In this document: positions 3,891 to 24,811 of the stretch, piece by piece
How the letters are laid out: every line of letters begins with the position of its first letter
Numbering within the stretch: the first letter of the stretch is position 1
From: a virus
Strand: one strand, 5' to 3'
IMG/VR virus record: IMGVR_UViG_3300028569_000019
Coordinates: 1 to 64,000 of that record
Length of the DNA stretch: 64,000 nucleotides
Notes under the pieces: generated by a model
Told to the model about the DNA's origin: nothing
The model's input: only the letters and a program-made list of their open reading frames with translations
Databases searched by the model: none
Program-made: the position numbers and the translations under genes

Positions 3891-3968
3891 ATGAGAGTCA
3901 AGTATACACATATTAAACGCTGGGATACATTTACAAATTGTGAATGTCTGGCGGTTGATATTGTATAG
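3891..3968 (+). CDS. Putative attenuator leader peptide 1 (MRVKYTHIKRWDTFTNCECLAVDIV*), not in ORF track
   Basis: ATG 3891 lies 13 nt after a TATATATT promoter-like motif; TAG stop at 3966-3968; last codons overlap the antiterminator strand; codons match tRNA array 1. Confidence 0.7.
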   Translation: MRVKYTHIKRWDTFTNCECLAVDIV

Positions 3969-4035
3969 TATGTGAACACCTTCTTGTACAAAAAATCAAC
4001 CGCCAATCCAAAAAGATGGCGGTTTTTTGTTTTTT
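3949..4035 (+). terminator. Attenuator 1: overlapping antiterminator and intrinsic terminator
   Basis: TGGCGGTTGAT (3949-3959) pairs perfectly with ATCAACCGCCA (3995-4005); alternatively AACCGCCA (3998-4005) pairs with TGGCGGTT (4017-4024), followed by a U-tract. Confidence 0.8.
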
Positions 4036-4134: not shown

Positions 4135-4162
4135 TTGACAATTTAAAATAGTCTGTTAGACT
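4135..4162 (+). promoter_or_regulatory. Sigma70-type promoter of tRNA array 1
   Basis: TTGACA-16 nt-TAGACT with extended -10 TG. Confidence 0.6.
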
Positions 4163-4173
4163 TAATGAAGATT

Positions 4174-4293
4174 GTGGAAGGCTTGAAACTCCATCTGTTG
4201 AGCCACCGCCAGTAACCAAAGGTAAAGACTGGGAAAATCAATTGATTGGTCCGTGGGTGTTATGCTGGAATACAGAACCCATAGGGCGATAAT
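4174..4293 (+). ncRNA. Conserved structured leader RNA, copy 1
   Basis: Shares TTGAAACTCYATCTGWTG and TTGATYGGTC..TGGGTGTTATGCTGRAATACAGAACCCAT..GGCGATAAT with 14042-14137; compensatory base changes between the copies. Confidence 0.65.
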
Positions 4294-4342
4294 GACATAA
4301 CTGAGGTTATTGTTATTTGGTATAAGAATAAAAGATTTTTAT

Positions 4343-4417
4343 GCCTCCTAAGCATTGGTAGCGATGCAGAGGTTTTGTAAACCCCAGAGCTCGGCGCAAG
4401 CCCGGGAGGAGGCTCCA
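4343..4417 (+). tRNA. tRNA-Thr(UGU)
   Basis: GCCTCCT/AGGAGGC acceptor, loop TT-TGT-AA, encoded CCA; non-canonical T-loop CGCAAGC. Confidence 0.85.
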
Positions 4418-4429
4418 ATTTATAGTAAT

Positions 4430-4505
4430 GGTGATATTGGTGTAACAGTTAGCATTTGAGTTTGTGAAACTCACGGAACGAGGGCAGCACTCGTATATCA
4501 CCCCA
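4430..4505 (+). tRNA. tRNA-His(GUG)
   Basis: G-1:C73 extended acceptor GGTGATAT/ATATCACC, anticodon arm TGAGT-TTGTGAA-ACTCA, CCA. Confidence 0.9.
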
Positions 4506-4515
4506 AATTTATAAT

Positions 4516-4594
4516 GGCCTCATCGTCTACGAATGTAATAGGATTCTGGATTCTCAATCCGGAGAACTCGGTTTGACTCCGAGTGAGGCTACCA
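4516..4594 (+). tRNA. tRNA-Glu(CUC)
   Basis: GGCCTCA/TGAGGCT acceptor, CTGGA-TTCTCAA-TCCGG, CCA. Confidence 0.85.
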
Positions 4595-4601
4595 ATTTAA
4601 T

Positions 4602-4676
4602 TACCCTATCGTCTAGTAACTAGGACTAGTGTCCCGGACGACACTAACCTTGGTTTGAATCCAAGTGGGGTAACCA
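4602..4676 (+). tRNA. Atypical tRNA-like gene, anticodon undetermined (8-nt loop CCCGGACG)
   Basis: Intact acceptor TACCCTA/TGGGGTA, Glu-type D arm, T arm and CCA, but the anticodon arm AGTGT-CCCGGACG-ACACT lacks U33. Confidence 0.6.
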
Positions 4677-4682
4677 ATTTAT

Positions 4683-4760
4683 GCTGGTGTAGCTCAAATG
4701 GATTAGAGCGTTTGATTACGAATCAAAAGGTTGTAGGTTCAACTCCTACCATCAGCACCA
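4683..4760 (+). tRNA. tRNA-Arg(ACG)
   Basis: Canonical cloverleaf, TTTGA-TTACGAA-TCAAA, CCA. Confidence 0.95.
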
Positions 4761-4767
4761 TTTTAAT

Positions 4768-4842
4768 GGCCTATTCGACAACCAGCTAAGTCACTTGGCT
4801 TTCATCCAAGAGTAGCCGGGGCAGCACCGGCATAGGCTACCA
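4768..4842 (+). tRNA. tRNA-Glu(UUC)
   Basis: GGCCTAT/ATAGGCT acceptor, CTTGG-CTTTCAT-CCAAG, T-loop GGCAGCA, CCA. Confidence 0.88.
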
Positions 4843-4844
4843 TT

Positions 4845-4931
4845 TTTGACGGCACTGTAGGGTGCAGTCGTAAGCAAGATCACCCCTAGCATAATCTGAA
4901 ACAGTGAAGCGTTAAGATCTTGACCGTCAAA
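4845..4931 (+). ncRNA. Unassigned structured RNA within tRNA array 1
   Basis: Closing stem TTTGACGG/CCGTCAAA, nested CACTGT/ACAGTG and GGGTG/CACCC stems. Confidence 0.5.
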
Positions 4932-4939
4932 TATTTCAT

Positions 4940-5017
4940 ATCCGCCAATGTTCCAAGGATTAGGCGACAGGCTCTCCAAAAGCCCGTGGGTAAGTTCGAT
5001 TCTTACGGTGGATGCCA
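4940..5017 (+). tRNA. tRNA-Trp(CCA)
   Basis: ATCCGCC/GGTGGAT acceptor, GGCT-CTCCAAA-AGCC, GTAAG-TTCGATT-CTTAC, G73, CCA. Confidence 0.85.
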
Positions 5018-5025
5018 TTTTTTCA

Positions 5026-5204
5026 AATACATTAGGTGAAGGCAACGAACGTAGTTTAATTGGTAAAACAACCGCACGAATAAGCGGAAGTCATTCAGTT
5101 CGAATCTGAATCACTAGTTGAAGTAGTAAGTAATGTATTGACACTGATAGACATTGAATGTTATAATCTGACGAGGTTATAATTAGTAAGTGGAACGTTC
5201 GTTG
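5026..5204 (+). ncRNA. tRNA-like RNA with ~84-nt insertion between T arm and 3' acceptor strand
   Basis: CAACGAACG (5043-5051) pairs with CGTTCGTTG (5196-5204); D arm GTTT-AATTGGTA-AAAC; T arm ATTCAG-TTCGAAT-CTGAAT. Confidence 0.55.
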
Positions 5205-5228
5205 AAATCCAGTAAACATTTTTTTAAC

Positions 5229-5300
5229 TCCCCTGTAGTGTCAAAGTAGCACGGCTGGTTGTTACCCAGTTAGGTGAAGGTGCGAGTCCTTCTGGGGGAG
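5229..5300 (+). tRNA. tRNA-Asn(GUU), no encoded CCA
   Basis: TCCCCTG/TGGGGGA acceptor, GCTGG-TTGTTAC-CCAGT, G73. Confidence 0.8.
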
Positions 5301-5351
5301 CTTTCGTCAAAATAAAATACATTTTGACAGTTCACATCCATATTTATTATT

Positions 5352-6047
5352 ATGGATGTGAACCAAGATTTCAAATATACAATATATAAAACTACCAATA
5401 AAATTAACAACAAAGTTTATATTGGAATGCATAAAACAAAAAATCCATATGACAGTTATATGGGTTCTGGTAAATTATTCAAAAGAGCAGTAGGAAAATA
5501 TGGTGAAGAAAACTTTGTAAAAGAAGTTTTATTTATATTTGATACCGCTGAAGAAATGTTTGCGAAAGAAAAAGAAATAGTAAATCAATTATTTATTGAA
5601 TCAGATAATACATACAATATTATGGAAGGTGGATGTGGAGGTTATTCATATATAAATGAATCTGGTAAAAATTTGTATGGTCAGAACGGTGATATTAATC
5701 ACGGTGGAAAAAATTTATTAACTGGTAATAAAATAAAAGAATTTTTAATTGAAAAAGGATTATTTGAAGAATGGAAACAGAAAGTATCAACATCTTTAAA
5801 AGAAAAATGGAAACGAGATGGTTTTCATTGGACTGGTAGAAAACATAAAGATGAATCGAAAAAGAAAATGAGCGCAGATAGAAAAGGCAAATATACAGGT
5901 ATAGATAATTCAAATTATGGAAATTGTTGGGTTTATTCAGATTTAGAATCTAAGAATAAAACCATTAAAAAACAAGAATTAAATGATTACATAAATAATG
6001 GATGGAAACCGGGTATAAAAATGAAATATCATAAGAAAATTTCATAA
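5352..6047 (+). CDS. GIY-YIG homing endonuclease (T4 Seg-like) with NUMOD3-like motif
   Basis: YTIYKTTNKINNKVYIGMH, YMGSG, YNIMEGG; C-terminal WTGRKHKDESKKKMS. Confidence 0.9.
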   Translation: MDVNQDFKYTIYKTTNKINNKVYIGMHKTKNPYDSYMGSGKLFKRAVGKYGEENFVKEVLFIFDTAEEMFAKEKEIVNQLFIESDNTYNIMEGGCGGYSYINESGKNLYGQNGDINHGGKNLLTGNKIKEFLIEKGLFEEWKQKVSTSLKEKWKRDGFHWTGRKHKDESKKKMSADRKGKYTGIDNSNYGNCWVYSDLESKNKTIKKQELNDYINNGWKPGIKMKYHKKIS

Positions 6048-6065
6048 TAATTTTTAAATTTCAAT

Positions 6066-6188
6066 TCCAGAGTAGCTCAATGGTAGAGCATGCGGCTGTG
6101 GGCCATAAAGTATTATTTAATAGAGAGTGCAAATCTCATAAGGCCAAAGTTAACCGCAGGGTTGGGGGTTCGAAACCCTCCTCTGGAG
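6066..6188 (+). tRNA. tRNA-Asn(GUU) interrupted by a 51-nt insertion in the anticodon loop
   Basis: TCCAGAG/CTCTGGA acceptor, canonical D and T arms, TGCGG/CCGCA anticodon stem; removing 6098-6148 restores CT-GTT-AA. Confidence 0.8.
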
Positions 6189-6203
6189 CTCTTTCAATAG
6201 TTT

Positions 6204-6320
6204 TATATGATGTATGATATATGCTGATTAAGGGTTAGGCAGTTGATCAAATTGCAATAGTATGAACATAAAGTGCCTTAAGAAATTTAAATAATTTCAT
6301 TGTTCATTATACATTATATA
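6204..6320 (+). ncRNA. Unassigned structured RNA with possible pseudoknot
   Basis: 15-bp closing stem 6204-6218/6306-6320, inner hairpins, TTAAGG/CCTTAA cross-pairing. Confidence 0.5.
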
Positions 6321-6329
6321 ATTTTTCAA

Positions 6330-6430
6330 TAGGGAGTAGTAATTGATAAAAAACAAGCTAGATAGATGAGCAAGTTCGAAATTGCTTGAACGGTGTGAAA
6401 TCCTAGTGTAAGTTTAGATGAACTGCCCTA
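6330..6430 (+). ncRNA. Unassigned structured RNA
   Basis: Closing stem TAGGGAGT/ACTGCCCTA; inner CTAG/CTAG and AGCAA-GTTCGAAA-TTGCT hairpin. Confidence 0.4.
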
Positions 6431-6439
6431 CTAATTTTC

Positions 6440-6526
6440 GGGAGTATCGCATAGCAGCAATTGCTGGACACTGTAAATGTCCCGGCCTAACGGCCTTCGT
6501 AGGTGCAAGTCCTACTGCTCCCACCA
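6440..6526 (+). tRNA. tRNA-Tyr(GUA) copy 1
   Basis: GGACA-CTGTAAA-TGTCC, long variable arm, CCA. Confidence 0.9.
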
Positions 6527-6531
6527 TTTTT

Positions 6532-6617
6532 GGGGTATTATACTGATAAAGACGCAGAACGGTCTGTAAAACCGTTGCCTTCGGGCTGGGTAGGAGCATT
6601 ACCTACATACCCCACCA
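6532..6617 (+). tRNA. tRNA-Tyr(GUA) copy 2
   Basis: ACGGT-CTGTAAA-ACCGT, variable arm GCC-TTCG-GGC, CCA. Confidence 0.85.
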
Positions 6618-6624
6618 TTTCAAT

Positions 6625-6698
6625 TGACCGTTAATTCAATAGCAGAATAGACGACTGATAATCGTCCTACGCCGGAGCGTAACCGGCACGGTCAACCA
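6625..6698 (+). tRNA. tRNA-Ile(GAU)
   Basis: TGACCGT/ACGGTCA acceptor, GACGA-CTGATAA-TCGTC, CCA. Confidence 0.9.
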
Positions 6699-6700
6699 AT

Positions 6701-6770
6701 TTTGTTAGTAAGTGTTGGGTTCAATCCCCTTTACTCTGTGATCACTGGTGAGAACATAACTACTAACAAA
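6701..6770 (+). ncRNA. Small RNA with a T-loop-like hairpin inside a 10-bp closing stem
   Basis: TTTGTTAGTA/TACTAACAAA stem enclosing GGG-TTCAATC-CCC and a TGG-containing hairpin. Confidence 0.45.
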
Positions 6771-6776
6771 TTCAAC

Positions 6777-6856
6777 GGATCAGTATTGGCCACGCCTTCT
6801 AAGCGATAGGTGCATAATTGGATAAGTGTTGGGTTCGACTCCCACCTGATCCACCA
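6777..6856 (+). tRNA. Non-canonical tRNA-Arg(UCU)-like gene (D-arm-like element 3' of the anticodon arm)
   Basis: GGATCAG/CTGATCC acceptor plus CCA, CGC-CTTCTAA-GCG, T arm TGGG-TTCGACT-CCCA. Confidence 0.6.
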
Positions 6857-6909
6857 AATATTTAAAAATAAATGAAACTATTTGCTCTATACAACATATT
6901 TATTTAGAT

Positions 6910-7545
6910 ATGATGAAATGTAAATGGTGTTTGATTAATTTTGATTTAAATGATAAACCTAAAGGATGGGCAGCTGCACACACAAGATGGTGTGATCACA
7001 ATCCAAAAAAACAAGAGTATATAGATAAACTAAAATCTGCAAATAGAACACATTTAATGTGTGAATCAAAAAAAATAAGCGGAAAGACAAATCAATTCAC
7101 AAAAGCAAAAGTAAACGGATTTACTTTAACTAGTAAATTAAAAGGTAGAAAAAATATTGCTCTAAAAGGAAAGAAACATTCAATTCAAAGTAAGCTGAAT
7201 ATGAGTAAAGGATCTTTAAAATCTACTCATAGAAGATTACGCAGAGGAATTATTCAATATAAAGGAATAACACTCGATTCTAGTTGGGAATTAGAATTAG
7301 CTAAAAGATTGGATGATTTAAACATTAAATGGAATAGACCTGATCCATTAAAATGGAAAGATTCCAATGGTTTAGAACACAATTATTTTCCTGATTTCTA
7401 TTTAATAGACTATAATCTATATTTAGATCCAAAAAATCCAGGAGCATATAAAGTTCAAAAATCAAAAATTGATATACTGCTTAATACTTACAATAATATT
7501 TTAATTTTAAAAACTTTAGAAGAATGCAAAGGATTTAAAATTTGA
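6910..7545 (+). CDS. Putative homing endonuclease, NUMOD3 + PD-(D/E)XK domain
   Basis: KGKKHSIQSKLNMS; DSSWE...YFPDFYL...YLDPK. Confidence 0.75.
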   Translation: MMKCKWCLINFDLNDKPKGWAAAHTRWCDHNPKKQEYIDKLKSANRTHLMCESKKISGKTNQFTKAKVNGFTLTSKLKGRKNIALKGKKHSIQSKLNMSKGSLKSTHRRLRRGIIQYKGITLDSSWELELAKRLDDLNIKWNRPDPLKWKDSNGLEHNYFPDFYLIDYNLYLDPKNPGAYKVQKSKIDILLNTYNNILILKTLEECKGFKI

Positions 7546-8317
7546 ATGCTTTTTTGAAGGCATTGCCTGTTTTTTTGGCACCATCATTAATTGCATTACC
7601 TGCATTATTTACAACATTAGTTGTTTCTTTGACGGCAGTATTTGTTACATTGGTAGTTTGTTGAACTACTGGTTGAGTTGCTTTTGCAACGGTATTAGCA
7701 TCTTTTACAACTTTATTTGTATCAATTGTAGCACTTACATCTACCTTTGCGCCAACTAATACTGCAACATCACCACTTACACCAACGGTTACTTTACCAT
7801 TGTCCATAGTGGCTTGAGCAGAACCACCGCCACCAACTTGTTCACCAACACTAACGCCTGAACCAGCGGTAACTGATGCGCCTCTTACTTTTGCAGTTCC
7901 AGAAGCGTCAACACCTACCGCATTACCAATAGAACCTTCCGCACCAACTGCAACACCTTTGTCACCGGCTTGAACATTTGCAGATGCGTTTGTACCACTG
8001 ACTGCGTAAGCGTCTGCTGTACCTGCAACGCCTACACCATTACTTTGAACTTTACCATCTACAACAACGTGAGCTTCTGTACCGCTACTATAACTTGCGT
8101 TTGCGTATACATTGTTACCATCTAGACCACCGGCAGCGGATGCTTCTGTACCAGTTTTTACTGAAGCTTCTACACCAACGGATGCGTTTTTATTTCCAAC
8201 ACTTGCGCCAGCGGATGCTTCTGCGGTATTTGTGTAAGAAACACTTGCTGAGTTTTTATCAACTGTTGCGGTTGCGGATTGGTTGATTTCTGCGGATGTA
8301 TTTGTTTGTGTTACCAT
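7535..8317 (-). CDS. Gly/Ala/Val-rich beta-strand protein, antisense to the tRNA array
   Basis: 260-aa ORF with alternating AxAGASVG-type strands; TATATAT motif upstream on the - strand. Confidence 0.7.
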   Translation of the reverse strand: MVTQTNTSAEINQSATATVDKNSASVSYTNTAEASAGASVGNKNASVGVEASVKTGTEASAAGGLDGNNVYANASYSSGTEAHVVVDGKVQSNGVGVAGTADAYAVSGTNASANVQAGDKGVAVGAEGSIGNAVGVDASGTAKVRGASVTAGSGVSVGEQVGGGGSAQATMDNGKVTVGVSGDVAVLVGAKVDVSATIDTNKVVKDANTVAKATQPVVQQTTNVTNTAVKETTNVVNNAGNAINDGAKKTGNAFKKAFKF

Positions 8318-8368
8318 ATTTGATATATATGGTAGAATAGATACAAGATTGAATTTAAAGTTTTCTTT

Positions 8369-8444
8369 GCCTTCATAGTATAAAAGTATTACACATCATT
8401 GGTAATGATGAAACGTAGGGGGGCGGTACCTACTGGAGGCTCCA
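8369..8444 (+). tRNA. tRNA-Thr(GGU)
   Basis: GCCTTCA/TGGAGGC acceptor, CATCA-TTGGTAA-TGATG, CCA; T-loop enlarged by a G run. Confidence 0.8.
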
Positions 8445-8497
8445 TTTTAAAAATATATTTAGAAGTGTGTGGATTATATATATAGTAAAATAAATTT

Positions 8498-9301
8498 ATG
8501 GAATCTACAAACGCTCCCCAAACATTTTCGTTTACTAATAAAAAGGTATTATATGCAATAATTGCTGTAATTGTATTGGTAATTTTTGGATTATACACAT
8601 TATTTAGTTCAATGAATAGAGATAATAAAGCTCTAACTAAGAAGGTTGTTAATCAGACTGAGATTGTTGTAAATCAAAGTTTATTAATTACCAATTTAAA
8701 TCAAAAGAATGTGGAATTGGCGACGTTATTGAAGAGTTATGACAATAAATTGAGTATATTGCATACTAATTTAACTCAGTTACAAAGTATTACCGAGAAG
8801 TTAAAAGTATCATCTGATGAAAAGGATGTGAAGATTAAAGATTTGTCTCAAGAAAAAACTGCGCTTGAATCTGATTTAAAGTCTTTGCGTAATACGCTTA
8901 CAAAAATGACCAAAGAGATTGTAGATTTAGGCGACGAACTTAAAGTTGCAAAGACTGATAAAGCTCAAAATGAGCTTCTATCTAAGATTGAATTACTTAC
9001 AAAGGAACGAGATTTGTTAAAAAACAAGATAGTAGAGTATGAAAAAATTATAGAAGAATTGAAGAAAGAAAATGTGATTTTGGCTCAAAATTTGAGACAA
9101 AGTGTGAAAAAAAGTGGTTATGAATTTAAAAACAAATTGGGTGAGTGGCCAAAAGGTGGCGAGGTTTTAATGAGGATGTCAAGTTATCACACAAATAATT
9201 CTTTAAAAGAAAATAGTAATGTAAGTGAACCAAAACAAGATGAAAAACCTAAAAAAGTAGGTTTTTGGAAGCGTATTTTTGGTTCGGGTGAAACTGAATG
9301 A
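8498..9301 (+). CDS. Membrane-anchored coiled-coil protein
   Basis: N-terminal TM helix VLYAIIAVIVLVIFGLYTLF, long heptad region, C-terminal KKVGFWKRIFG amphipathic motif. Confidence 0.75.
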   Translation: MESTNAPQTFSFTNKKVLYAIIAVIVLVIFGLYTLFSSMNRDNKALTKKVVNQTEIVVNQSLLITNLNQKNVELATLLKSYDNKLSILHTNLTQLQSITEKLKVSSDEKDVKIKDLSQEKTALESDLKSLRNTLTKMTKEIVDLGDELKVAKTDKAQNELLSKIELLTKERDLLKNKIVEYEKIIEELKKENVILAQNLRQSVKKSGYEFKNKLGEWPKGGEVLMRMSSYHTNNSLKENSNVSEPKQDEKPKKVGFWKRIFGSGETE

Positions 9302-9307
9302 TTTAAT

Positions 9308-9381
9308 GCCTATATAGCTTAAAGGTAAAGCATCAATTTCGTAAACAACGATCACAGGTTCGATTCCAGTAACAGGCTCCA
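9308..9381 (+). pseudogene. Degenerate or chimeric tRNA-Thr(CGU)
   Basis: D arm, TTCGTAA loop, TTCGATT T-loop and TCCA end are present, but the anticodon stem (TCAAT/ACAAC) and part of the acceptor do not pair. Confidence 0.65.
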
Positions 9382-9389
9382 ATTTTAAT

Positions 9390-9480
9390 GCACGACGACG
9401 GAGCTAGTGAACTGAGATGTCTGCAAAACATCATTGTATGAAAATACATATGCAAGGAGCGTAACCTTGGTCGTGCTCCA
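9390..9480 (+). tRNA. tRNA-Cys(GCA) with long variable arm
   Basis: GCACGAC/GTCGTGC acceptor, GATGT-CTGCAAA-ACATC, U73, CCA; variable hairpin TGTAT-GAAA-ATACA. Confidence 0.82.
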
Positions 9481-9534
9481 AAATTTGTTAAATTAATTCA
9501 CATATTATACAATACTCCATATATTTATGTATAT

Positions 9535-10308
9535 ATGAATTCTATTGAATTAATTTGTAAAAATTGTAATATTAAATTTGATAAAAATATCTATTATTAT
9601 AGACAATCTCTTAAGAGAGGATATACCAACTTTTTTTGTTCAATTAAATGTTCTTCTATCTTTGCTGGCGGAATTCTTAAAGAAAAAGGTAAACAATTAA
9701 AAATTAATTGTGAAAGTTCATATTTAAAAAATCCAAAAAATTGCCCTCAGTGTCATAAATTAATTTCTTATAAAAAAAGATACAATGAGTATTGTTCAAA
9801 AAAATGTTCTGCGATTTATACACAAAAAGATAAAGGACATTGTGAATGGAGCATTGAAGATAGAGAGAAAATTTCTTTACGAGTTAAAGATTATCATAAT
9901 AAAAATCCAAAGACTAAAAAGTTAAAAATAAAAATATGTAAAAATTGTAATAATGAAATAAAAGACAAACACAAAAGAATATGCAATAGTTGTTCAGAAA
10001 AATATTATAAATTTTACAGACCATTATGTGAGTTTGATTTTATTTTAGAAAATTACCCTGATAAATTTGATTTATCTTTAATTAAAAAATACGGAAAATA
10101 TAGTCCTAAAAATAAAGGTAATAATTTAACAGGAATAAGTAGAGATCATCTTTATTCTGTAAAAGACGGATTTAAAAATAAAGTAAGTCCTGATATCATT
10201 AGACATCCAGCAAATTGTATGTTAGTAAAACATAAAGAAAATCAAAAAAAATATAACAAAAGTTCTATTTCATTAGAAGAATTAAAAAAAAGAATATTAG
10301 AATGGTAA
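9535..10308 (+). CDS. Zinc-finger HNH-type homing endonuclease
   Basis: Repeated CxxC / FCSxxC motifs; C-terminal SRDHLYSV...HPANC...HKEN. Confidence 0.75.
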   Translation: MNSIELICKNCNIKFDKNIYYYRQSLKRGYTNFFCSIKCSSIFAGGILKEKGKQLKINCESSYLKNPKNCPQCHKLISYKKRYNEYCSKKCSAIYTQKDKGHCEWSIEDREKISLRVKDYHNKNPKTKKLKIKICKNCNNEIKDKHKRICNSCSEKYYKFYRPLCEFDFILENYPDKFDLSLIKKYGKYSPKNKGNNLTGISRDHLYSVKDGFKNKVSPDIIRHPANCMLVKHKENQKKYNKSSISLEELKKRILEW

Positions 10309-10347
10309 TCCAACACGGGACTCCATTTTTTATATATTTATTACTAT

Positions 10348-10818
10348 ATGATATTATTAAAAGATTTATTGATAGAATCACCGTCAGTAATAACAGTATA
10401 TAGAGGTGTTAATCCTGCGTATGGTGATGTTGGTTTGGGTATCAACAGCACCAAGATAGGAGATAAATTAGTTGCAACGTTGGGGCCTAATCATACTGAT
10501 AATTTAGATGTTGCTAAACGATTTGGCAAACAGATAATAACTACTAAATTAAATGGGCCTGGATTGGAATTGTCTCATTATAATGACATAGTTAATTTAT
10601 ATAAGCAGTATGAAAATATGTTACCGCCTGGTCTTGCAAAACAAATCAAATATAGTAGTGGACAAGAACAATTGGAGTTAATACAATTAGCAGGTAAAGA
10701 GTTACGTAGTATATTGAGTAAGAAATATGGATATATTAAGAGTCCACTTGCGGTAAGTGATGCTAATTATTTAAGTCAAAAAGGATTAACAGGAGATTTG
10801 TATATACCGTTGAGATAA
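10348..10818 (+). CDS. Putative ART-fold protein, paralog of 1531..1998
   Basis: VYRGVNPAYGDVGLGINSTKIGDKLVATLGPNHTDN identical to the paralog. Confidence 0.5.
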   Translation: MILLKDLLIESPSVITVYRGVNPAYGDVGLGINSTKIGDKLVATLGPNHTDNLDVAKRFGKQIITTKLNGPGLELSHYNDIVNLYKQYENMLPPGLAKQIKYSSGQEQLELIQLAGKELRSILSKKYGYIKSPLAVSDANYLSQKGLTGDLYIPLR

Positions 10819-10837
10819 TCAAACTACTTATTTTGGT

Positions 10838-11011
10838 ATGAATGAATTTAATCTATATCAAAAGTTTTTGGAGTTGAAGAAGGAAATAGAAAAACATAAA
10901 TGGATAGAGAGTGAAAAGAACGGTAATGATATAGGATTTGAACGTGCATTAGTTGATTGGATATCTAAACATAGAACTGGTTGGTGCGAGAATATAAAGC
11001 ATAATAAATAA
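10838..11011 (+). CDS. Small protein (57 aa, MNEFNLYQKF...HKWIESEKNGNDIGFERALVDW...), not in ORF track
   Basis: Open frame ATG 10838 to TAA 11011; HKWIESEK.G.DIGFERA..DW motif recalled from small conserved PVC-superphylum proteins (DUF4032-like). Confidence 0.7.
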   Translation: MNEFNLYQKFLELKKEIEKHKWIESEKNGNDIGFERALVDWISKHRTGWCENIKHNK

Positions 11012-11031
11012 AATTAATATATTTATAACAT

Positions 11032-11448
11032 ATGACCAAAAATGATTTGAAAAAATTAATAAAAAGTTTGACAAAAGAAGTGTTAAACGAAGATTTTGAC
11101 AATGCAGCCGAAGTGGAAAGTGATAAACTTACTGCTCATTTATCCGAAGATGATACTGCTGCTAACATTAAAGATTTAGAAAAATTGTTAAAAAACCCAG
11201 ATCCAAGTAGAGCAAAAGATTATGGTTCTTTGGAAAATTATAAGAAAATGTTAATGGGTAAAATTGCTAAATTAAAGAAACAAAAGAATGAAAGCAGTGA
11301 TCCTTTTAGAGACATTGTAAAGAAGTATGCTAGTCTTTATAGAGATAGTGAACTTTCACGCAGAGAGAAGGAAGATTATTTTAAATGGTTACAAACCAAC
11401 CAACCTGAGAAATTTAAAAAGGTTGTAGATAAGCTTAAAAAGAAGTAA
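11032..11448 (+). CDS. Hypothetical protein, paralog of 112..381 with C-terminal extension
   Basis: Shared ~60-aa core; TATTTATA at 11020. Confidence 0.75.
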   Translation: MTKNDLKKLIKSLTKEVLNEDFDNAAEVESDKLTAHLSEDDTAANIKDLEKLLKNPDPSRAKDYGSLENYKKMLMGKIAKLKKQKNESSDPFRDIVKKYASLYRDSELSRREKEDYFKWLQTNQPEKFKKVVDKLKKK

Positions 11449-11511
11449 AAATAGATTTAAATTTAAACAAAGTGAAACGATTAATGTTAAAATTAATCGT
11501 TTTATTTTTTA

Positions 11512-11539
11512 TTGACAATGAGACGTTGACAAGTATAAT
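11512..11539 (+). promoter_or_regulatory. Sigma70 consensus promoter
   Basis: TTGACA-16 nt-TATAAT. Confidence 0.65.
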
Positions 11540-11550
11540 AAAAGTATAGT

Positions 11551-11871
11551 ATGAATGAACTAAGTAAAATTGATATGGCGAATTTAGTCTTTAGTAATGA
11601 CAAAAAGGCTAAAATCAAAGATGTATTGTGTTCCAAGTATGGCGCAACTGACGTACAATATAGAGATCTAACGTATGGTATTTGTATTGATGTTGTTGGC
11701 ACTGATAGTTTTAGATTTGTAAAGAACGCAATACTAAAAACATTGGATGTGCATGAAGAAACTTTGTCCGTCTTGGGTGAAAGTAAGAGAAGTATGAAAG
11801 CTTCTTATGTTTATTTACCCGAAAAGGATAAAGTTTTGAACAAACGTCTCAAGAAGCTGAAAACTGCTTGA
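11551..11871 (+). CDS. Hypothetical protein
   Basis: 106-aa ORF directly after a consensus promoter. Confidence 0.65.
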   Translation: MNELSKIDMANLVFSNDKKAKIKDVLCSKYGATDVQYRDLTYGICIDVVGTDSFRFVKNAILKTLDVHEETLSVLGESKRSMKASYVYLPEKDKVLNKRLKKLKTA

Positions 11872-12020
11872 ATAAATAAATAAGTTCTTATAAGATTATA
11901 AAAACTATATATTGATGAACAATTTCGAAAAAATACATTTTATTGGTTTTTTCGGATAACGTTAAGCTGTTCTTAACGTAGTTAGTAAACATAAACAAAC
12001 AAAATAAAGGATAGTTAAAT

Positions 12021-12731
12021 ATGAAGAAAGTATTAGTATTAGTGTCATTGTTGACCGCTCTAGCTGTATCTGCTGGAGATAATTCAAACCTCTCAGTAGA
12101 AGCTGGGTACAACAACCAATACATCGTTAATGGTGTAGCTCGTTCCGAGGGAACAGCGTTTGTTGGTGTAGGTGCTGTAAAGAGTCTAAAGTATGCAGAT
12201 GTATACTTGGGTGGCACTCTTTTGGCCAATGGCGACCTTGATCAGTCACACTGGACATTGGGTACGGGTAAGGAAGTTAGTGTATGGAAGGATGTATTTT
12301 CCGCACGTGCTGATGCTACTGTAACTCGTCACCAAGCTGGTAATTTTGGTATTCCAAACAGTACTGAGTTTGGTGTCAAGTTGGCTCTACCAAACAAGTT
12401 GGCAACTCCTTATGTACGTGGATCATTTGACATTGATCTAGATCAAAAGGGTGCATTTGTTGGTTTGGAACGTGCTCAAAAGTTGCCATTTGGATTTGTA
12501 ATCACACCTGCTGTTGAATATGGTAAGGTATTTGGTGCATCCAGTGATTACACTGCTGTAAATGCCAAGGCATCATTGACTCGTCCATTCGAAACTTCAT
12601 TTGGTGTATTGACTCCATTTGCTACTGTTGGATGGTATGATAATAATTTCAAGGTTGGCAATTATAATTGGGCAACCCGTGAATTTAGTGGAGATGTAGT
12701 ATATTCTGGTGGTTTGAGATTGACCTTCTAA
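12021..12731 (+). CDS. Outer-membrane beta-barrel protein (porin-like)
   Basis: Signal peptide MKKVLVLVSLLTALAVSA, amphipathic strands, terminal GLRLTF Bam signal, AAGGA SD. Confidence 0.8.
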   Translation: MKKVLVLVSLLTALAVSAGDNSNLSVEAGYNNQYIVNGVARSEGTAFVGVGAVKSLKYADVYLGGTLLANGDLDQSHWTLGTGKEVSVWKDVFSARADATVTRHQAGNFGIPNSTEFGVKLALPNKLATPYVRGSFDIDLDQKGAFVGLERAQKLPFGFVITPAVEYGKVFGASSDYTAVNAKASLTRPFETSFGVLTPFATVGWYDNNFKVGNYNWATREFSGDVVYSGGLRLTF

Positions 12732-12752
12732 TCTAGACTACAATAGTGTATT

Positions 12753-12787
12753 AAAACCCGCTTAGAAATAAGCGGGTTTTTTATTTT
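12753..12787 (+). terminator. Intrinsic terminator
   Basis: AAAACCCGC/GCGGGTTTT hairpin plus U-tract. Confidence 0.85.
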
Positions 12788-12822
12788 AATAGTCTATTTA
12801 TAATTAAAGAAAGGTTTATTTT

Positions 12823-13794
12823 ATGTCATCAACAAGTGGATCAAGTGGTAGTAGCGGAATAGGCACTTCCTCATTAAAAACAATAGTTGTTAAATCAACG
12901 TCTGTGGTAACTAAATTTATATCTAATATATTGTTACCAAAAGTGGTACAAAGTACGATAGTGGGTAGTAGTGGTATAGGTGGCAGTAGCGGGACGGGTG
13001 GTAGTAGTGGATCTTCTGATGGTATGCGTACTAACTGGACATCGAATATCAAATCCACAGTGATAAAAATGATGGCAGCTAGCAAAGACCGCAGTTTATT
13101 CAGTGCGTTTATCCAATCTACTTTTTCTTGGGTTCGAAATTCTGCTTCTTGGGTAATATCTTATAAATGGACAGGTACTGCAGCTGGTATAAATGGACTC
13201 GGTGGTGTTGGAGGTGGAACTCTTATTACTAGCAAGCATGTCTTATTGTCTGCACACGTTCCTTATTTGACAAATTCAGAAATCTTTTTTGTTAACGATA
13301 ATAATGTGACTTTCAAGTACAACATTATCAAGATCGACAAGATTGATGGAAGTGATATTGCAATTGGAACGCTTGATCGATCAATTGATAGTAGTTTGAA
13401 GATATATTCGGTATTACCAGACAACTGGCAACAATACATCAAAACTGAAATTAATAGTGTGATGGGGGTACAATTCATAACTTTACGGTTACCTGTTTTG
13501 TTCCTCAATCAAGACAAAAAAGTTTCAATTGGAGATATGACCCGATTAATTGATGCAGTTGCTGATGTAGAAGCTTCAGTATTTGGCACATCACAGTCGT
13601 ATTATGAGACACAAAGAGGTGGTGATTCTGGAAATCCAATATTTGTGCAGGTAGGTAGTGAATTGGCACTATTGGGTACGTGGTATAAAGTTGGAGCTTT
13701 TGCTTGGCTAATCAGTAGGAAAACTCAAGTCGAGTCTATTATTGGTCAAAAACTGAACGTAATTAATATGACTGGATTTGAGAAGGTATCCTGA
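12823..13794 (+). CDS. Trypsin-like serine protease with Ser/Gly-rich N-terminus
   Basis: GTLITSKHVLLSAH (His), SDIAIG (Asp), GGDSGNP (Ser). Confidence 0.85.
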   Translation: MSSTSGSSGSSGIGTSSLKTIVVKSTSVVTKFISNILLPKVVQSTIVGSSGIGGSSGTGGSSGSSDGMRTNWTSNIKSTVIKMMAASKDRSLFSAFIQSTFSWVRNSASWVISYKWTGTAAGINGLGGVGGGTLITSKHVLLSAHVPYLTNSEIFFVNDNNVTFKYNIIKIDKIDGSDIAIGTLDRSIDSSLKIYSVLPDNWQQYIKTEINSVMGVQFITLRLPVLFLNQDKKVSIGDMTRLIDAVADVEASVFGTSQSYYETQRGGDSGNPIFVQVGSELALLGTWYKVGAFAWLISRKTQVESIIGQKLNVINMTGFEKVS

Positions 13795-13872
13795 ACGTTA
13801 ACGAAATTTATTTAAAACTTATTAAATAATTTTATTGATTTTCAATTTCAAACACTATATATTAGTACGAAT

Positions 13873-13926
13873 ATGAATTTAATTTCACAACCTAGTCAAG
13901 CCAGTCAACTCCCATCAGGAAGTTGA
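13873..13926 (+). CDS. Putative attenuator leader peptide 2 (MNLISQPSQASQLPSGS*), not in ORF track
   Basis: ATG 13873 follows a TATATATT motif; TGA at 13924-13926 lies just before the antiterminator strand; codons match tRNA array 2. Confidence 0.7.
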   Translation: MNLISQPSQASQLPSGS

Positions 13927-13928
13927 GT

Positions 13929-13993
13929 ACGAGGTTGTTTGCTAAAAAGATCCAACCCGTCACTCTTAAAAAGAATGATGGGTTTTTGATTTT
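13929..13993 (+). terminator. Attenuator 2: overlapping antiterminator and intrinsic terminator
   Basis: ACG(A)GGTTG (13929-13937) pairs with CAACCCGT (13953-13960); alternatively AACCCGTCA (13954-13962) pairs with TGATGGGTT (13976-13984), followed by a U-tract. Confidence 0.72.
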
Positions 13994-13998
13994 AATGG

Positions 13999-14026
13999 TT
14001 GACAATTTGACGAAGTATGGTAAATT
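13999..14026 (+). promoter_or_regulatory. Sigma70-type promoter of tRNA array 2
   Basis: TTGACA-16 nt-TAAATT with extended -10 TG. Confidence 0.6.
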
Positions 14027-14041
14027 AGAAATATAACGAAC

Positions 14042-14137
14042 GGGGTTGAAACTCTATCTGATGTCCCCAACATAAGTTAAAACATTTGATCGGTCACTGG
14101 GTGTTATGCTGAAATACAGAACCCATCTGGCGATAAT
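14042..14137 (+). ncRNA. Conserved structured leader RNA, copy 2
   Basis: Homologous to 4174-4293; same position between the promoter and the first tRNA. Confidence 0.65.
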
Positions 14138-14166
14138 TAAAATAAAGTATATAACAATTTTTAAAT

Positions 14167-14240
14167 GGGGGTTTAGTTTAAAAGCAAAACAGTAGTTTTA
14201 CACACTTCAAACGGTGGAGCATTACCATCAACCCCTACCA
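14167..14240 (+). tRNA. tRNA-Val(UAC)
   Basis: GGGGGTT/AACCCCT acceptor, loop TT-TAC-AC, CCA. Confidence 0.85.
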
Positions 14241-14308: not shown

Positions 14309-15004
14309 ATGAAAAGTAAAATTTGGAATATTTCAACGGAGGAATTTAAAAAAATTATAAAAAACAATTGTTGTATGGCAGATGTTTGTAGAACTTTGAA
14401 TATGAGAAAAGAGGGTGGTAATTATAGAACTATTAAACGTAGAATTGAATTTGAAAAAATTGATACTTCACATTTTCTTTCCAAAAAAGAAATTTTTTCA
14501 ATTAAAAATGTAAATACAGTTTCAAAAGATGAACTTTTACTTAGATTAAAAGAAAATACTGACATAGAAACTGTGTGGCTTAAAAATAAATTAATAAAAT
14601 TCAATTTATTTGACAATAAATGTGCAGAATGTTCTATAAAAGATTTTTGGAATAATAAACCACTTAAATTACAATTAGATCACATTGATGGTGATCATTT
14701 TAATAATACATTATCTAATCTTAGATTATTATGTCCAAATTGTCATTCACAGACTCATACATTTTGTGGGAAATCTAAAAAAACTAAAAAATATAAATGT
14801 TCAGAATGTAACACTGAAACAAGTGGTTATACAAATATTTGTAGAACGTGTTCAATGAAAAAACTAAGAAAAGTTGAAAGACCAACAAAAGATGTTTTAC
14901 AACAAGAAATTAAAAATAATACATTTATATCACTTAGTAAAAAATACGGTGTATCAGATAATGCAATTAGAAAATGGTGTAAATATTATTCAATAGATTT
15001 TTAA
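14309..15004 (+). CDS. HNH homing endonuclease with C-terminal HTH
   Basis: LQLDHIDGDHFNNTLSNLRLLCPNCHSQT; KKYGVSDNAIRKW. Confidence 0.92.
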   Translation: MKSKIWNISTEEFKKIIKNNCCMADVCRTLNMRKEGGNYRTIKRRIEFEKIDTSHFLSKKEIFSIKNVNTVSKDELLLRLKENTDIETVWLKNKLIKFNLFDNKCAECSIKDFWNNKPLKLQLDHIDGDHFNNTLSNLRLLCPNCHSQTHTFCGKSKKTKKYKCSECNTETSGYTNICRTCSMKKLRKVERPTKDVLQQEIKNNTFISLSKKYGVSDNAIRKWCKYYSIDF

Positions 15005-15451: not shown

Positions 15452-15516
15452 ACAACTCCACTTGACAATGGAACCGAAGACTGATAATATCGTCTCTTGA
15501 AGAAATCGGAGTTTGT
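15452..15516 (+). ncRNA. Unassigned small structured RNA between the two tRNA-Ser genes
   Basis: ACAACTCC/GGAGTTTGT closing stem; inner AGAC/GTCT hairpin. Confidence 0.35.
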
Positions 15517-15845: not shown

Positions 15846-16526
15846 ATGAGTAAAAAAAGAACAAGTATTATCTGGAAAATTTCAAACGAAGATTTTGCCA
15901 ACTTAGTGAAAAATAGCAAAACTATGACTGAGTTACTAAAGCACTTTGGTATGGAAAATAAAGGTGGAAATTTTAAAACGTGTAAAAAAAGAATTAATGA
16001 ATTACAAATTAATACTAGTCATTTTCTTTCTAGGACACAATCAAGTACTTGGAAGAGACAAGTTACAAAAGAAGATTTATTAAAAAAATTGACAACAAAT
16101 TCGTGTTATAATAGAACAGATTTAAAAAAACGTTTAATTAAATTTGATATAATAAAATATGAATGTGCAAATTGTAAAAATAATGGCATCTGGGGAAATA
16201 AAAAATTAACTCTTCAATTAGAACATAAAAATGGAATATCAGATGATAATAGATTTGAAAATTTAGAATTTTTATGTCCTAATTGTCATAGTCAAACGTC
16301 TACATTTGCAGGTCGTTCTCTAAATAAACACCGCATTAAACCATCGGAAATAAATCCTGATTGGAGACATCAACCAAGATATGAAAAAAGAAAAGTTGAT
16401 AGACCTTCAAAAGAAATTTTAGAAAAAGAAATTAAAGAAAATACTATGGTTAGTCTTGGGAAGAAATACGGTGTATCGGATAATTCCATAAGAAAATGGT
16501 GTAAAAATTATGGTATCAATTTATAA
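15846..16526 (+). CDS. HNH homing endonuclease (paralog of 14309..15004)
   Basis: LQLEHKNGISDDNRFENLEFLCPNCHSQT; KKYGVSDNSIRKW. Confidence 0.92.
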   Translation: MSKKRTSIIWKISNEDFANLVKNSKTMTELLKHFGMENKGGNFKTCKKRINELQINTSHFLSRTQSSTWKRQVTKEDLLKKLTTNSCYNRTDLKKRLIKFDIIKYECANCKNNGIWGNKKLTLQLEHKNGISDDNRFENLEFLCPNCHSQTSTFAGRSLNKHRIKPSEINPDWRHQPRYEKRKVDRPSKEILEKEIKENTMVSLGKKYGVSDNSIRKWCKNYGINL

Positions 16527-24792: not shown

Positions 24793-24811
24793 TACTTTAT
24801 ATTTATAAAAT

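Follow-up and report, generated by a model that had tools for sequence, protein, structure and literature searches.

An uncatalogued pseudoknotted leader RNA heads the main tRNA arrays of a clade of uncultured aquatic phages

Leader copies, promoters and tRNA arrays of the window

The window (the whole stretch of 64,000 nt that was analysed) belongs to an uncultured giant lake phage in which each main tRNA block starts with one copy of a leader RNA (Table 1). Both copies lie 12–17 nt behind a sigma70-type promoter and are followed by the first tRNA 30–50 nt further 3'. The first-pass annotation had located two copies downstream of sigma70 promoters, and both were found again there, each preceded by a promoter-like TTGACA-16-TAnnnT site. 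The extent that it gave to copy 1 (4174–4293) is right at its start and too short at its end, as a covarying hairpin extends further. That annotation divided the leader into a module A (a stem closing a conserved loop) and a module B (a long hairpin). The 28-nt core of module B matched twice in the window against 0.00 matches expected by chance; the core of module A also matched twice, a number reached by 4 of 100 shuffles at ≤3 mismatches. RNA-library contigs from four studies span the leaders. At copy 2, such contigs start at 14038 and at the position equivalent to 14033, close to the predicted start; this is no more than a hint, as the ends of an RNA are not visible in contigs.

Table 1. 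Features of the two leader RNA loci in the window.
Feature	Position	Strand	Description	Basis
Copy 1, upstream context	4000–4035	+	Intrinsic-terminator-like hairpin CCGCCA...TGGCGG and T run, end of upstream unit	Read from sequence
Copy 1, promoter	4135–4162	+	TTGACA, 16 nt, TAGACT; TG before −10; predicted start ~4169	
Copy 1, leader RNA	4174–4316	+		
Copy 1, outer helix	4174–4177 with 4206–4209	+	GUGG/CCGC	MFE fold prediction only
Copy 1, P1 hairpin	4179–4205	+	G4180-C4204, G4181-C4203, C4182-G4202; encloses near-invariant UUGAAACUCYAUC	Alignment
Copy 1, pseudoknot 5' strand	4195–4201	+	C-U-G-U-U-G-A, within P1 loop, abuts P1 3' strand	Covariation
Copy 1, P2 linker hairpin	4209–4232	+	CCAGU...ACUGG, conserved AAGGUAAAG interior; variable, optional in family	Alignment helix 4
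Copy 1, pseudoknot 3' strand	4238–4244	+	U-C-A-A-U-U-G	Covariation
Copy 1, long hairpin P3-P4-P5 (module B)	4245–4290	+	AUUG(G)UCC/GGGCGAU, GUGGGU/ACCCAU	Alignment
Copy 1, P6	4292–4316	+	Extra 3' hairpin, UGAG loop; long-linker type only	RNAalifold
Copy 1, first gene	4343–4417	+	tRNA-Thr(UGU)-like; 7-bp acceptor stem, encoded CCA, odd T loop	By eye
Copy 2, upstream context	13954–13994	+	Terminator-like hairpin and T run, 3' of 17-codon ORF (13873–13926)	Read from sequence
Copy 2, promoter	13999–14026	+	TTGACA, 16 nt, TAAATT; TG before −10; predicted start ~14033	
Copy 2, leader RNA	14042–14134	+		
Copy 2, P1 hairpin	14042–14068	+	GGGG/CCCC with conserved loop	Sequence and alignment
Copy 2, pseudoknot 5' strand	14058–14064	+	C-U-G-A-U-G-U	Covariation
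Copy 2, P2	14069–14078	+	3-bp mini-hairpin AAC-AUAA-GUU	Read from alignment only
Copy 2, pseudoknot 3' strand	14082–14088	+	A-C-A-U-U-U-G	Covariation
Copy 2, long hairpin P3-P4-P5 (module B)	14089–14134	+		MFE fold and alignment
Copy 2, spacer	14135–14166	+	A/U-rich, U run at end; no conserved structure or terminator	
Copy 2, first gene	14167–14237	+	tRNA-Val(UAC)-like, degenerate D arm in this phage	Rfam tRNA, 45.8 bits

The record has 17 tRNA hits, every one of them behind one of the two copies. The tRNA-Thr(UGU)-like gene was called neither by ARAGORN nor by Rfam; in relatives, ARAGORN placed a tRNA-Thr(UGU) 40–60 nt 3' of the leader in 40 of 61 cases, and the relatives of copy 2 carry a canonical tRNA-Val(UAC) 20–40 nt 3' of it. 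RNAalifold gave no helix between P3 and the tRNA in 20 relatives, and no terminator was found directly behind the leader. The unit behind copy 1 is about 8.6 kb long, with its predicted start at 4169 and its first strong terminator at 12753–12780, and the terminator scan identified no strong intrinsic terminator inside the arrays. Consensus promoters are also present within the arrays (5138–5167, 11512–11539 and 15462–15490), all of them without a leader. No conserved partner gene was seen in the arrays, whose ORFs are homing endonucleases or have no assigned function.

Family spread and genomic placement

The search yielded 181 occurrences, corresponding to 100 distinct sequences, in viral and metagenome contigs from lakes, rivers and some marine samples. 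Among 185,579 prokaryote species genomes the leader was absent except for two 3-kb MAG contigs. An Rfam scan gave no family at gathering score or at E values up to 1, in agreement with the first-pass annotation, which had not recognised the motif as a known family. Both leader copies belong to an uncatalogued pseudoknotted RNA family.

The suspected association with tRNA arrays was borne out, as same-strand tRNAs follow within 3 kb (median 7–8) in 140 of the 141 occurrences with enough flanking sequence. A TTGACN-N16-18-TAnnnT promoter ends 12–23 nt 5' of P1 in 161 of the 174 copies with enough flank, around 11 copies lack a recognisable promoter, and in one relative (L027) the leader is found behind an inserted tRNA-Val and a 54-codon ORF, not directly behind the promoter, with its fold intact. 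Main-clade genomes carry two diverged paralogues, one heading each main array; at least 15 contigs have two copies, and every one that was read combined one long-linker with one short-linker copy. The leader was not seen at any mid-array or array-end position. In G002, a complete relative, a third tRNA cluster follows a similar promoter but lacks the leader. In a clade of uncultured aquatic phages of 200–300 kb, the leader is the element encoded first after the sigma70-type promoter of every main tRNA array.

Fold of the leader RNA

Leader RNAs of the family measure about 95–150 nt, and a fold made up of the P1 hairpin, an H-type pseudoknot, the variable P2 linker hairpin and the long hairpin P3–P5 is well supported. 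The stem of module A stands as P1 (columns 11–45: CG 52, GC 30, UA 15, UG 3, unpaired 0). Its supposed loop does not, since the 3' half of this loop pairs with the stretch directly 5' of module B and forms the pseudoknot. Of the closing pair T4183-A4201 proposed for that stem (GGCT/AGCC), A4201 fits better in the knot, as A4201-T4238 (columns 44–99: AU 55, UA 45, unpaired 0). Five pairs of the knot helix (columns 40–44) are 99.2% paired, and the sixth (27–105) is an invariant C-G. Besides pair 44–99, pair 41–102 covaries (UA 55, GC 33, AU 10), and two relatives (L134 and L191) are identical except for a swap from A-U to G-C at this pair. In copy 2 the two covarying knot pairs are A14061-T14085 and T14064-A14082; their counterparts in copy 1 are U-A and A-U.

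The linker between both modules had been reported to differ, which is correct; it proved to be a variable hairpin, long in copy 1 and, in copy 2, a 3-bp stem capped by a tetraloop (AUAA; GNRA in many relatives). The mini-hairpins of the relatives, as read from the alignment, are AAC-GAAA-GUU, GCU-GAAA-AGC or UC-GUAA-GA. In P2 (helix 4), four of the five pairs show changes on both sides, such as UGAGAU/AUCUCA in L114, and an additional hairpin, mostly GNRA-capped, is inserted at this site in relatives.

In the P3-P4-P5 hairpin, the internal loop G-W-U-A / G-A-A is invariant and the apical stem is short. Helix 5 within it is 95.6% paired, with covariation at 113–149, 115–146 and 116–145 (six pair types), and the P5 pair 125–138 is GC 89, CG 10. 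Both substitutions first noticed between the module B copies recur in the family: the compensatory C-G/A-U change, at the base of the module, is real (CG 50, AU 44), as is the consistent Y-G change (UG 57, CG 43). For P6, RNAalifold predicts ten pairs, nine of them with compensatory changes among 24 relatives.

Across the alignment 93.9% of the cells are paired, compared with 83.9% in shuffles, and the covariation score is 0.225 against 0.082 in shuffles (0 of 500 reach 0.225) and at most 0.051 with the partners slid. There are 13 pairs with changes on both sides, compensatory double substitutions occur in six helices, and RNAalifold recovered the long-range knot helix unaided. In addition, the fold is specific to the + strand, owing to G-U pairs that are invariant or frequent. 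Folding stability was not unusual with respect to shuffled sequence (z = 0.15 and 0.38 for the two copies), and with this ordinary stability the case for structure rests on covariation. The covariation originally claimed from two copies held, and the leader is a conserved, covarying and strand-specific RNA.

Possible function of the leader RNA

For the function, the first-pass annotation had suggested a put-like or rrn-like processive antiterminator or a processing signal. Our best guess, offered tentatively, is that the leader may be a nascent RNA that acts in cis to sustain elongation by RNA polymerase. It would fold while still attached to the polymerase and affect the unit that it heads, most likely by binding RNA polymerase during elongation or a factor that travels with it. 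Transcription would thereby resist pausing and Rho-type termination over several kb of untranslated, hairpin-dense tRNA and homing-endonuclease DNA, in the manner of HK022 put RNA, whose fold is unrelated. An RNase P cut at the first tRNA would then free the leader as a 5'-triphosphate RNA of about 100–150 nt. Action in cis rather than in trans is suggested by the two diverged paralogues, one per main array, and by their absence from mid-array and array-end positions; antitermination is favoured by the location directly behind the promoter and by the length of the unit behind copy 1. Several data argue against it. The leader has neither sequence or structural likeness to put nor a boxA, and, as the arrays hold no strong intrinsic terminators, the remaining obstacles would be Rho-type or pause effects alone. 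The array-internal promoters and the third cluster of G002 do without a leader, some copies lack a recognisable promoter or, in L027, are displaced from the promoter, and in folding energy the leader does not surpass shuffled sequence. Furthermore, the very strongly conserved unpaired bases and the GNRA-capped peripheral helices suit a ligand-binding, protein-binding or catalytic core at least as well.

A possible, although doubtful, alternative is a stable trans-acting small RNA or RNA-protein particle, with its 5' end given by the array promoter and its 3' end by RNase P. Its invariant loops would bind a phage or host protein or RNA, and in function it would be akin to the T4 species 1 and 2 RNAs. 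This would agree with the long unpaired stretches that are invariant, with the compact fold, which is knotted and GNRA-decorated, and with the absence of an expression platform downstream. The constant position 20–60 nt before a tRNA means that RNase P would free the leader, the T4 tRNA cluster also holds two stable RNAs of unknown role, and the leaderless third cluster of G002 shows that the leader is not needed for tRNA expression; the coverage of the leaders by RNA-library contigs of four studies is a weak hint in the same direction. However, a trans actor would not need one copy per main array, nor always the first position. Neither homology to T4 rnaC/rnaD nor a conserved partner gene in the arrays was seen, and the window is not enriched in matches to the complement of the conserved loop (13, with 10.7 expected).

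That the leader is a module for processing or stability of the tRNA precursor seems unlikely. As the 5'-most part of the transcript, with a pseudoknot near the 5' end, it could protect the RNA against decay that depends on the 5' end (RNase E entry, RNase J or another 5'-3' exonuclease), or it could place RNase P or RNase E so that the array matures in order. However, a simple 5' hairpin would suffice for protection, leaving the invariant loops unexplained; mature tRNAs are stable without the leader, and L027-type copies behind a tRNA and an ORF would lose the 5'-terminal position and yet keep the fold. Coremin-type features (3–4-bp hairpin with YGAD loop, conserved 10-nt spacer, second hairpin; PMC6546385) are absent, as is any Rfam xrRNA match.

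Less probable still is a riboswitch-like aptamer that senses a ligand or tRNA and would tune the transcription or processing of the array by a non-classical route, for example through Rho access or by letting the knot compete with the P3 base. Aptamers typically have such an architecture, in which a pseudoknot and conserved junction nucleotides are combined with variable, GNRA-looped peripheral helices. An extension of the knot by AUC/GAU could take place if the first two P3 pairs were given up, a possible two-state switch; the competing pairs are invariant, though, so nothing shows that both states are used. Terminator, anti-terminator and ribosome-binding site are all absent downstream, and no Rfam riboswitch or T-box matched.

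We consider very improbable a self-cleaving ribozyme of a new class trimming the 5' leader of the array. Small knotted RNAs beside phage tRNAs can indeed be ribozymes, such as theta/HDV-like ones (PMC10879173) and hammerheads, and the conservation pattern would suit a catalytic core; but the helix order (P1 5', knot 5', P1 3', linker, knot 3', hairpin) departs from the nested double pseudoknot that HDV-like ribozymes have, none of the Rfam ribozyme models matched, and RNA-library contigs cross the leader without a recurrent break, which is weak evidence. Finally, a duplicated DNA-level site (operator or homing-target remnant) or a small coding sequence is close to refuted: the window copies share the promoter too, so that part of their similarity is promoter conservation, but compensatory changes and strand-specific G-U pairs contradict it, apical-loop and linker length changes are not multiples of three, and the copy differences within the sole ATG-started frame are non-synonymous.

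Comparison with known systems

The leader RNA is unrelated to HK022 put, boxA leaders, T4 rnaC/rnaD and RNase P RNA. The rrn and lambda nut (boxA/boxB) leaders protect long untranslated RNA operons from termination. In those systems a linear protein-binding box is conserved, whereas here it is a folded knot, and no boxA-like sequence was found on the + strand of either leader. Like the leader, the T4 species 1 and 2 RNAs (rnaC and rnaD) are small, have no assigned function and come from the tRNA cluster of a large myovirus; they are matured with the tRNAs and lie at the distal end of the cluster instead of its head. Against the T4 locus, the best hit of the covariance model (10.4 bits, E = 0.12) was elsewhere than rnaC/rnaD.

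Theta and minimal HDV-like ribozymes are likewise small pseudoknotted RNAs directly beside phage tRNA genes (PMC10879173), but differ in helix order, habitat (gut) and phage group, and no HDV-like Rfam match was obtained. GOLLD and ROOL (Rfam RF01998 and RF03087; PMC12286853) are phage and prophage structured RNAs often found beside tRNA genes, GOLLD having been described first from lake metagenomes; they are about four to eight times larger than the leader, have no fixed position behind a promoter and gave no Rfam match here.

The HK022 putL and putR sites are two paralogues behind early promoters that need no protein factor and counteract both intrinsic and Rho termination across at least 10 kb (PMC9378689). 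As in our phage, these are two paralogous structured RNAs behind sigma70 promoters and the first to be transcribed in long units. The covariance model had no match in an 8-kb HK022 stretch taken to hold the early region. In contrast to put, which is about 70 nt long and consists of two stems in a V with a triplex, the leader has an H-type pseudoknot and a long internally looped hairpin, shows much stronger sequence conservation and is tied to tRNA arrays.

Structure and covariation of the leader

Both copies of the leader that the first-pass annotation had placed at the start of the two tRNA arrays were confirmed by their sequence, by their promoter sites and by the 28-nt core of module B, of which the window has two occurrences and no more, with zero expected by chance. 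Extraction of the family yielded 181 occurrences, 100 of them distinct, and the module A loop was present in every sequence having module B. The two window copies show all the elements that define the family: the 5' hairpin P1 with a UUGAAACUCYAUC loop, a pseudoknot (the knot) to CANUUGAU, the long hairpin P3-P5 of module B with a G-W-U-A / G-A-A loop, and a tRNA array behind. They scored 93.7 and 108.3 bits with R1, the covariance model built from the family, whose seed alignment included both of them.

When the final structure was imposed on the 100 distinct sequences, 93.9% of the cells were paired vs 83.9% in column shuffles, counts that overstate the independent events because many of these sequences are closely related. 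Changes on both sides were found at 13 pairs. The covariation score was 0.225 vs 0.082 in shuffles, was reached by none of 500 shuffles and dropped to 0.051 or less once the 3' partners were slid one to three columns. The module A stem and the module B hairpin, already proposed in the first-pass annotation, were upheld by covarying alignment columns in P1 (11-45: CG 52, GC 30, UA 15, UG 3), at the base of module B (113-149: CG 50, AU 44), in P4 (116-145, with six pair types) and in the apical stem (125-138: GC 89, CG 10).

The stem of module A is therefore real, but the 3' part of what had been taken as its loop (CUGNUGN) is a paired strand, since it forms the knot with NCANUUG directly 5' of module B. 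Knot pair 41-102 was UA in 55 sequences, GC in 33 and AU in 10, with one exception, and pair 44-99 was AU in 55 and UA in 45, with no exception. RNAalifold, which cannot draw knots, chose this long-range helix over P1 unprompted. The most telling case for the knot is that of the family members L134 and L191, whose sole differences over about 103 nt are two knot positions, A-U in one and G-C in the other; the same swap, plus one further difference, separates L130 from L254.

The linker between the two modules is a variable hairpin (P2), often GNRA-looped in relatives, and the additional 3' hairpin of the long-linker type (P6, window positions 4292-4316) shows compensatory change in 9 of its 10 pairs. 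Because G-U pairs are invariant or frequent, the fold is specific to the + strand. Its folding energy was not better than that of shuffled sequence (z = 0.15 and 0.38), and its unpaired bases are conserved very strongly. At the cost of the first two pairs of P3, the knot could also gain three invariant pairs (AUC with GAU), which would allow two states in such a model; the competing bases never vary. All these results showed that the leader is a strand-specific knotted RNA fold with strongly conserved unpaired bases, and the original observation is thus confirmed and extended.

Promoters, tRNA arrays and position of the leader

In each main array, the leader is placed between a sigma70-type promoter and the first tRNA gene. 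A TTGACN-N16-18-TAnnnT site ending 12-23 nt before P1 was found in 161 of the 174 copies with enough upstream sequence, so the fold begins about 5-16 nt into the transcript. Same-strand tRNAs, with a median of 7-8, were detected within 3 kb in all but one of the 141 copies having at least 300 nt downstream (140/141), and the link with tRNA arrays suggested from the window extends to the family. The first tRNA is tRNA-Thr(UGU) after about 50 nt in the long-linker type, and tRNA-Val(UAC) or tRNA-Pro(UGG) after 20-40 nt in the short types. Both first tRNA genes of the window are non-canonical, and their homologues are canonical in most relatives. Neither conserved structure nor a terminator was identified in the spacer between the leader and the first tRNA, and no conserved helix that could serve as an expression platform follows copy 2. 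A possible helix between the A-rich linker and the U run preceding the first tRNA was dropped, since similar spacers of the AAUUUAU type are also found ahead of other tRNAs of the array.

Main-clade genomes carry one diverged paralogue per main array. Complete or nearly complete genomes of 295.8 and 303.6 kb have two copies 9-18 kb apart, one heading each array, and in the record of the window all 17 tRNA matches are located behind its two copies. A divergent genome of 202.7 kb has a single copy, heading a 21-kb tRNA-bearing region.

Exceptions to this placement were also observed. About 11 copies have no recognisable promoter. In the one examined in full, on contig L027 (12178-12607, + strand), and in several contigs sharing its upstream sequence, the promoter is separated from the leader by a second tRNA-Val(UAC) and a 54-codon ORF, and the leader, which begins about 10 nt after an ORF stop codon, is thus not promoter-proximal; such an arrangement would suggest that a small insertion or duplication took place. 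In the complete 295.8-kb genome (G002) there is, in addition, a third tRNA cluster whose promoter is similar but which lacks the leader; R1 detected nothing significant in this cluster, which is a natural leaderless control. Finally, the arrays are probably transcribed from several starts, because consensus promoters are found inside them.

Coordinates of the features identified in the window and of the leaderless cluster of a relative
Feature	Position	Description
Leader, copy 1	4174-4316 (+)	Long-linker type
Leader, copy 2	14042-14134 (+)	Short-linker type
Promoter-like site, copy 1	4135-4162 (+)	TTGACA-16-TAnnnT, behind a terminator-like hairpin
Promoter-like site, copy 2	13999-14026 (+)	TTGACA-16-TAnnnT, behind a terminator-like hairpin
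Terminator-like hairpin and T run	within 13873-13994 and 3891-4035 (+)	Upstream of each leader promoter
First gene behind copy 1	4343-4417 (+)	Non-canonical Thr(UGU)-like tRNA, unusual T loop; missed by ARAGORN and Rfam
First gene behind copy 2	14167-14237 (+)	Non-canonical Val(UAC)-like tRNA, degenerate D arm
Promoters inside arrays	5138-5167, 11512-11539, 15462-15490 (+)	Sigma70 consensus, perfect or near-perfect, without leader
tRNA-Asn(GUU)-like gene	6066-6188 (+)	51-nt insert in the anticodon loop
ORFs between tRNAs	5352-6047, 6910-7545, 14309-15004, 15846-16526, 16884-17786 (+)	GIY-YIG, HNH or other endonuclease-like
tmRNA gene	19187-19572 (+)	Full-length; Rfam RF00023, 101.6 bits, model positions 1-374
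RNA-library contig X3	13900-14067	From the upstream hairpin/ORF region into the leader
RNA-library contig X11	13980-14176	From the upstream hairpin/ORF region into the leader
Leaderless third tRNA cluster	L393 (G002 275800-281500), about 1510-1640	Cluster starting about 25 nt after a TTGACT-17-TAAATT promoter

Gene content of the arrays and RNA-library contigs

In the window, genes for HNH and GIY-YIG homing endonucleases are interspersed among the tRNA genes of the two arrays, and a tmRNA gene and, further on, tail genes are also present. The arrays look like a homing-endonuclease hotspot, as the interleaved ORFs are endonuclease-like and include a pair of close paralogues (phrog_10822, E = 1e-45 and 3e-42). 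On the same strand as the second array, the tmRNA gene is located about 2.3 kb past its last called tRNA (16871). The 17-codon ORF before copy 2 is rich in Ser, Gln, Pro and Leu. With regard to the tRNA-Asn-like gene, RNA-library contigs of two studies join position 6097 to 6149, without the insert, which could reflect either splicing or relatives that have no insert. Uninterrupted tRNA-Asn genes are present at 5229-5301 and in related contigs.

In four studies, both leaders are covered by assembled contigs from metatranscriptomes of rivers, estuaries, freshwater and lakes, which hints at transcription of the region. One of two contigs starts at 14038 and the other at the position equivalent to 14033, where the -10 hexamer predicts the transcript to begin; such contigs do not show the ends, strand or level of RNAs, be it by their termini, their depth or the bins without cover, and they may stem from carried-over DNA.

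Distribution of the leader family

The IMG/VR record is A+T-rich and 96.8 kb long, the window being its first 64 kb, and it is a fragment of a genome of about 300 kb, as CheckV rates it 29% complete. A scan of IMG/VR with the module B core pattern gave 25 stretches, and 64 with a looser pattern. At least 119 metagenome contigs had the leader pattern, mostly from lake, river and reservoir samples, with a few marine or TARA ones. Among prokaryote genomes (one per species, 185,579 species) it was found only in two 3-kb MAG contigs, which are most simply explained as mis-binned phage DNA.

Three layouts were distinguished: the long-linker type of copy 1, which carries P2 and P6, the short-linker type of copy 2, and a type with almost no linker. 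Additionally, members of a divergent subtype (L126, L140) scored about 48 bits, one member having a whole hairpin inserted in the P1 loop. A looser pattern designed for divergent members gave only two additional matches, due to chance and in coding DNA, and a 14-mer of the divergent subtype gave more than 116 chance matches, with no new member among the matches listed.

Regarding cultured phages, the leader region had no blastn match in 50,697 phage records. The tail sheath has only distant relatives (36% identity or less), in Microcystis phage Mel-JY01 and in an uncultured phage of 484 kb; R1 detected nothing in the former and only a 20-bit match (E = 0.04) in the latter.

Possible role of the leader

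tRNA arrays are a hallmark of large phages and, to our knowledge, little is known of how multi-kilobase untranslated arrays are transcribed and matured. Since each main array keeps its own copy of the leader at its head, the most economical reading is a cis role on its own transcription unit. Rho would be expected to attack transcripts such as long untranslated arrays, as in the case of rrn operons, which depend on antitermination. By analogy with the nascent put RNAs of phage HK022, the closest working model, we tentatively propose that the leader might act in cis on RNA polymerase and limit pausing and termination across the array. Against this proposal, there are no strong terminators inside the arrays, promoters without leader occur within them, a third cluster is leaderless, and no likeness to put or boxA was found. 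Moreover, such a conservation pattern would be just as expected of a core that binds a protein, a ligand or a substrate.

A somewhat less probable alternative is a stable trans-acting RNA freed by RNase P. With regard to its target, the window shows no enrichment in complements of the invariant loop, and the search for a partner protein in the ORFs in and between the arrays gave only HNH or GIY-YIG homing endonucleases, or ORFs without family. A module for processing or stability is unlikely, a sensor is more so, and a ribozyme is very improbable. An explanation other than RNA is hardly credible for a fold that covaries and is strand-specific.

It may be, although this is less likely than not, that the leader is a self-sufficient RNA device for tRNA arrays, either a second natural class, after put, of protein-free RNA reprogramming RNA polymerase or a new aptamer or ribozyme class gating phage tRNA supply. 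If so, giant aquatic phages would control their translation toolkit by a structured RNA without cellular counterpart. In any case, the leader is a compact RNA with a well-supported fold, common in lake viromes, which heads tRNA arrays and has no catalogued relative. Should RNA polymerase be its target, the leader would be a new RNA for elongation control without protein, and if it were a stable RNA, a sensor or a ribozyme, a different question would be opened on phage control of translation. Its small size makes it accessible to direct transcription assays, to chemical probing and to the determination of its structure, and the natural swaps of knot pairs (A-U, G-C, U-A) are ready designs of compensatory mutants.

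Comparison with known RNAs

A search with the 4227 covariance models of Rfam 15, either at the gathering score of each family or, with permissive filters, at E up to 1, gave nothing overlapping 4169-4320 or 14033-14166, in agreement with the first-pass annotation, which had not recognised the motif as a known family; elsewhere in the window only tRNA, tmRNA and chance matches were obtained. The literature search retrieved no publication describing the element, which may be included unnamed in a catalogue of 8,495 IMG/VR candidate RNAs (PMC10690425). The leader family is new to catalogues.

Several known classes were considered and rejected. A classical riboswitch or T-box was discarded because there is no terminator/antiterminator or sequestered ribosome-binding site, the spacer has no conserved helix and Rfam gave no match; P6 of copy 1 has no U run behind. 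In HDV-like and theta ribozymes the helix order differs, being a nested double pseudoknot (P1, P1.1, P2, P3, P4, with a 5' cleavage site), and no HDV-type Rfam match was obtained. A pistol-like topology was found neither by inspection nor with Rfam. The coremin type of xrRNA is defined by a YGAD-looped hairpin of 3-4 bp, together with a conserved spacer of 10 nt and another hairpin (PMC6546385). By inspection, only the P6 loop (UGAG) fits YGAD, and P6 is an 11-bp stem without a conserved spacer behind. As for bacterial RNase P RNA, the record has no RF00010 match and no colinear CR-I to CR-V with P4; the words in common with E. coli rnpB (AAACUCCA, ACAGAACCC and AUCGGUC) are not colinear, and the alignment scores were reached by 11-31% of shuffles.

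In the T4 tRNA cluster with rnaC/rnaD, R1 gave no significant match and its best weak ones were outside the rnaC/rnaD interval (locus 1909-2172); the highest-scoring match overlapping it (1995-2104, 4.2 bits, E = 4.7) lies on the other strand. No boxA (GCUCUUUAACAA-like, up to 3 mismatches, + strand) lies inside either leader, the whole window having 88 vs 97 expected.

Finally, the leader was compared with HK022 put. R1 with filters off on HK022 24000-32000, which we take to be the early region holding putL and putR, gave a best score of 10.2 bits (E = 0.22), without likeness in sequence. The put RNAs are two paralogous nascent RNAs behind early promoters that bind the beta' zinc-binding domain of RNA polymerase and, without any protein, suppress pausing and termination, whether intrinsic or Rho-dependent, for 10 kb or more (PMC9378689). 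Their structure is also different, since put consists of two stem-loops of about 70 nt whereas the leader is a pseudoknot plus a long hairpin. Common to both systems are paralogous copies just behind sigma70 promoters, heading long units, which is an analogy of layout and not homology.
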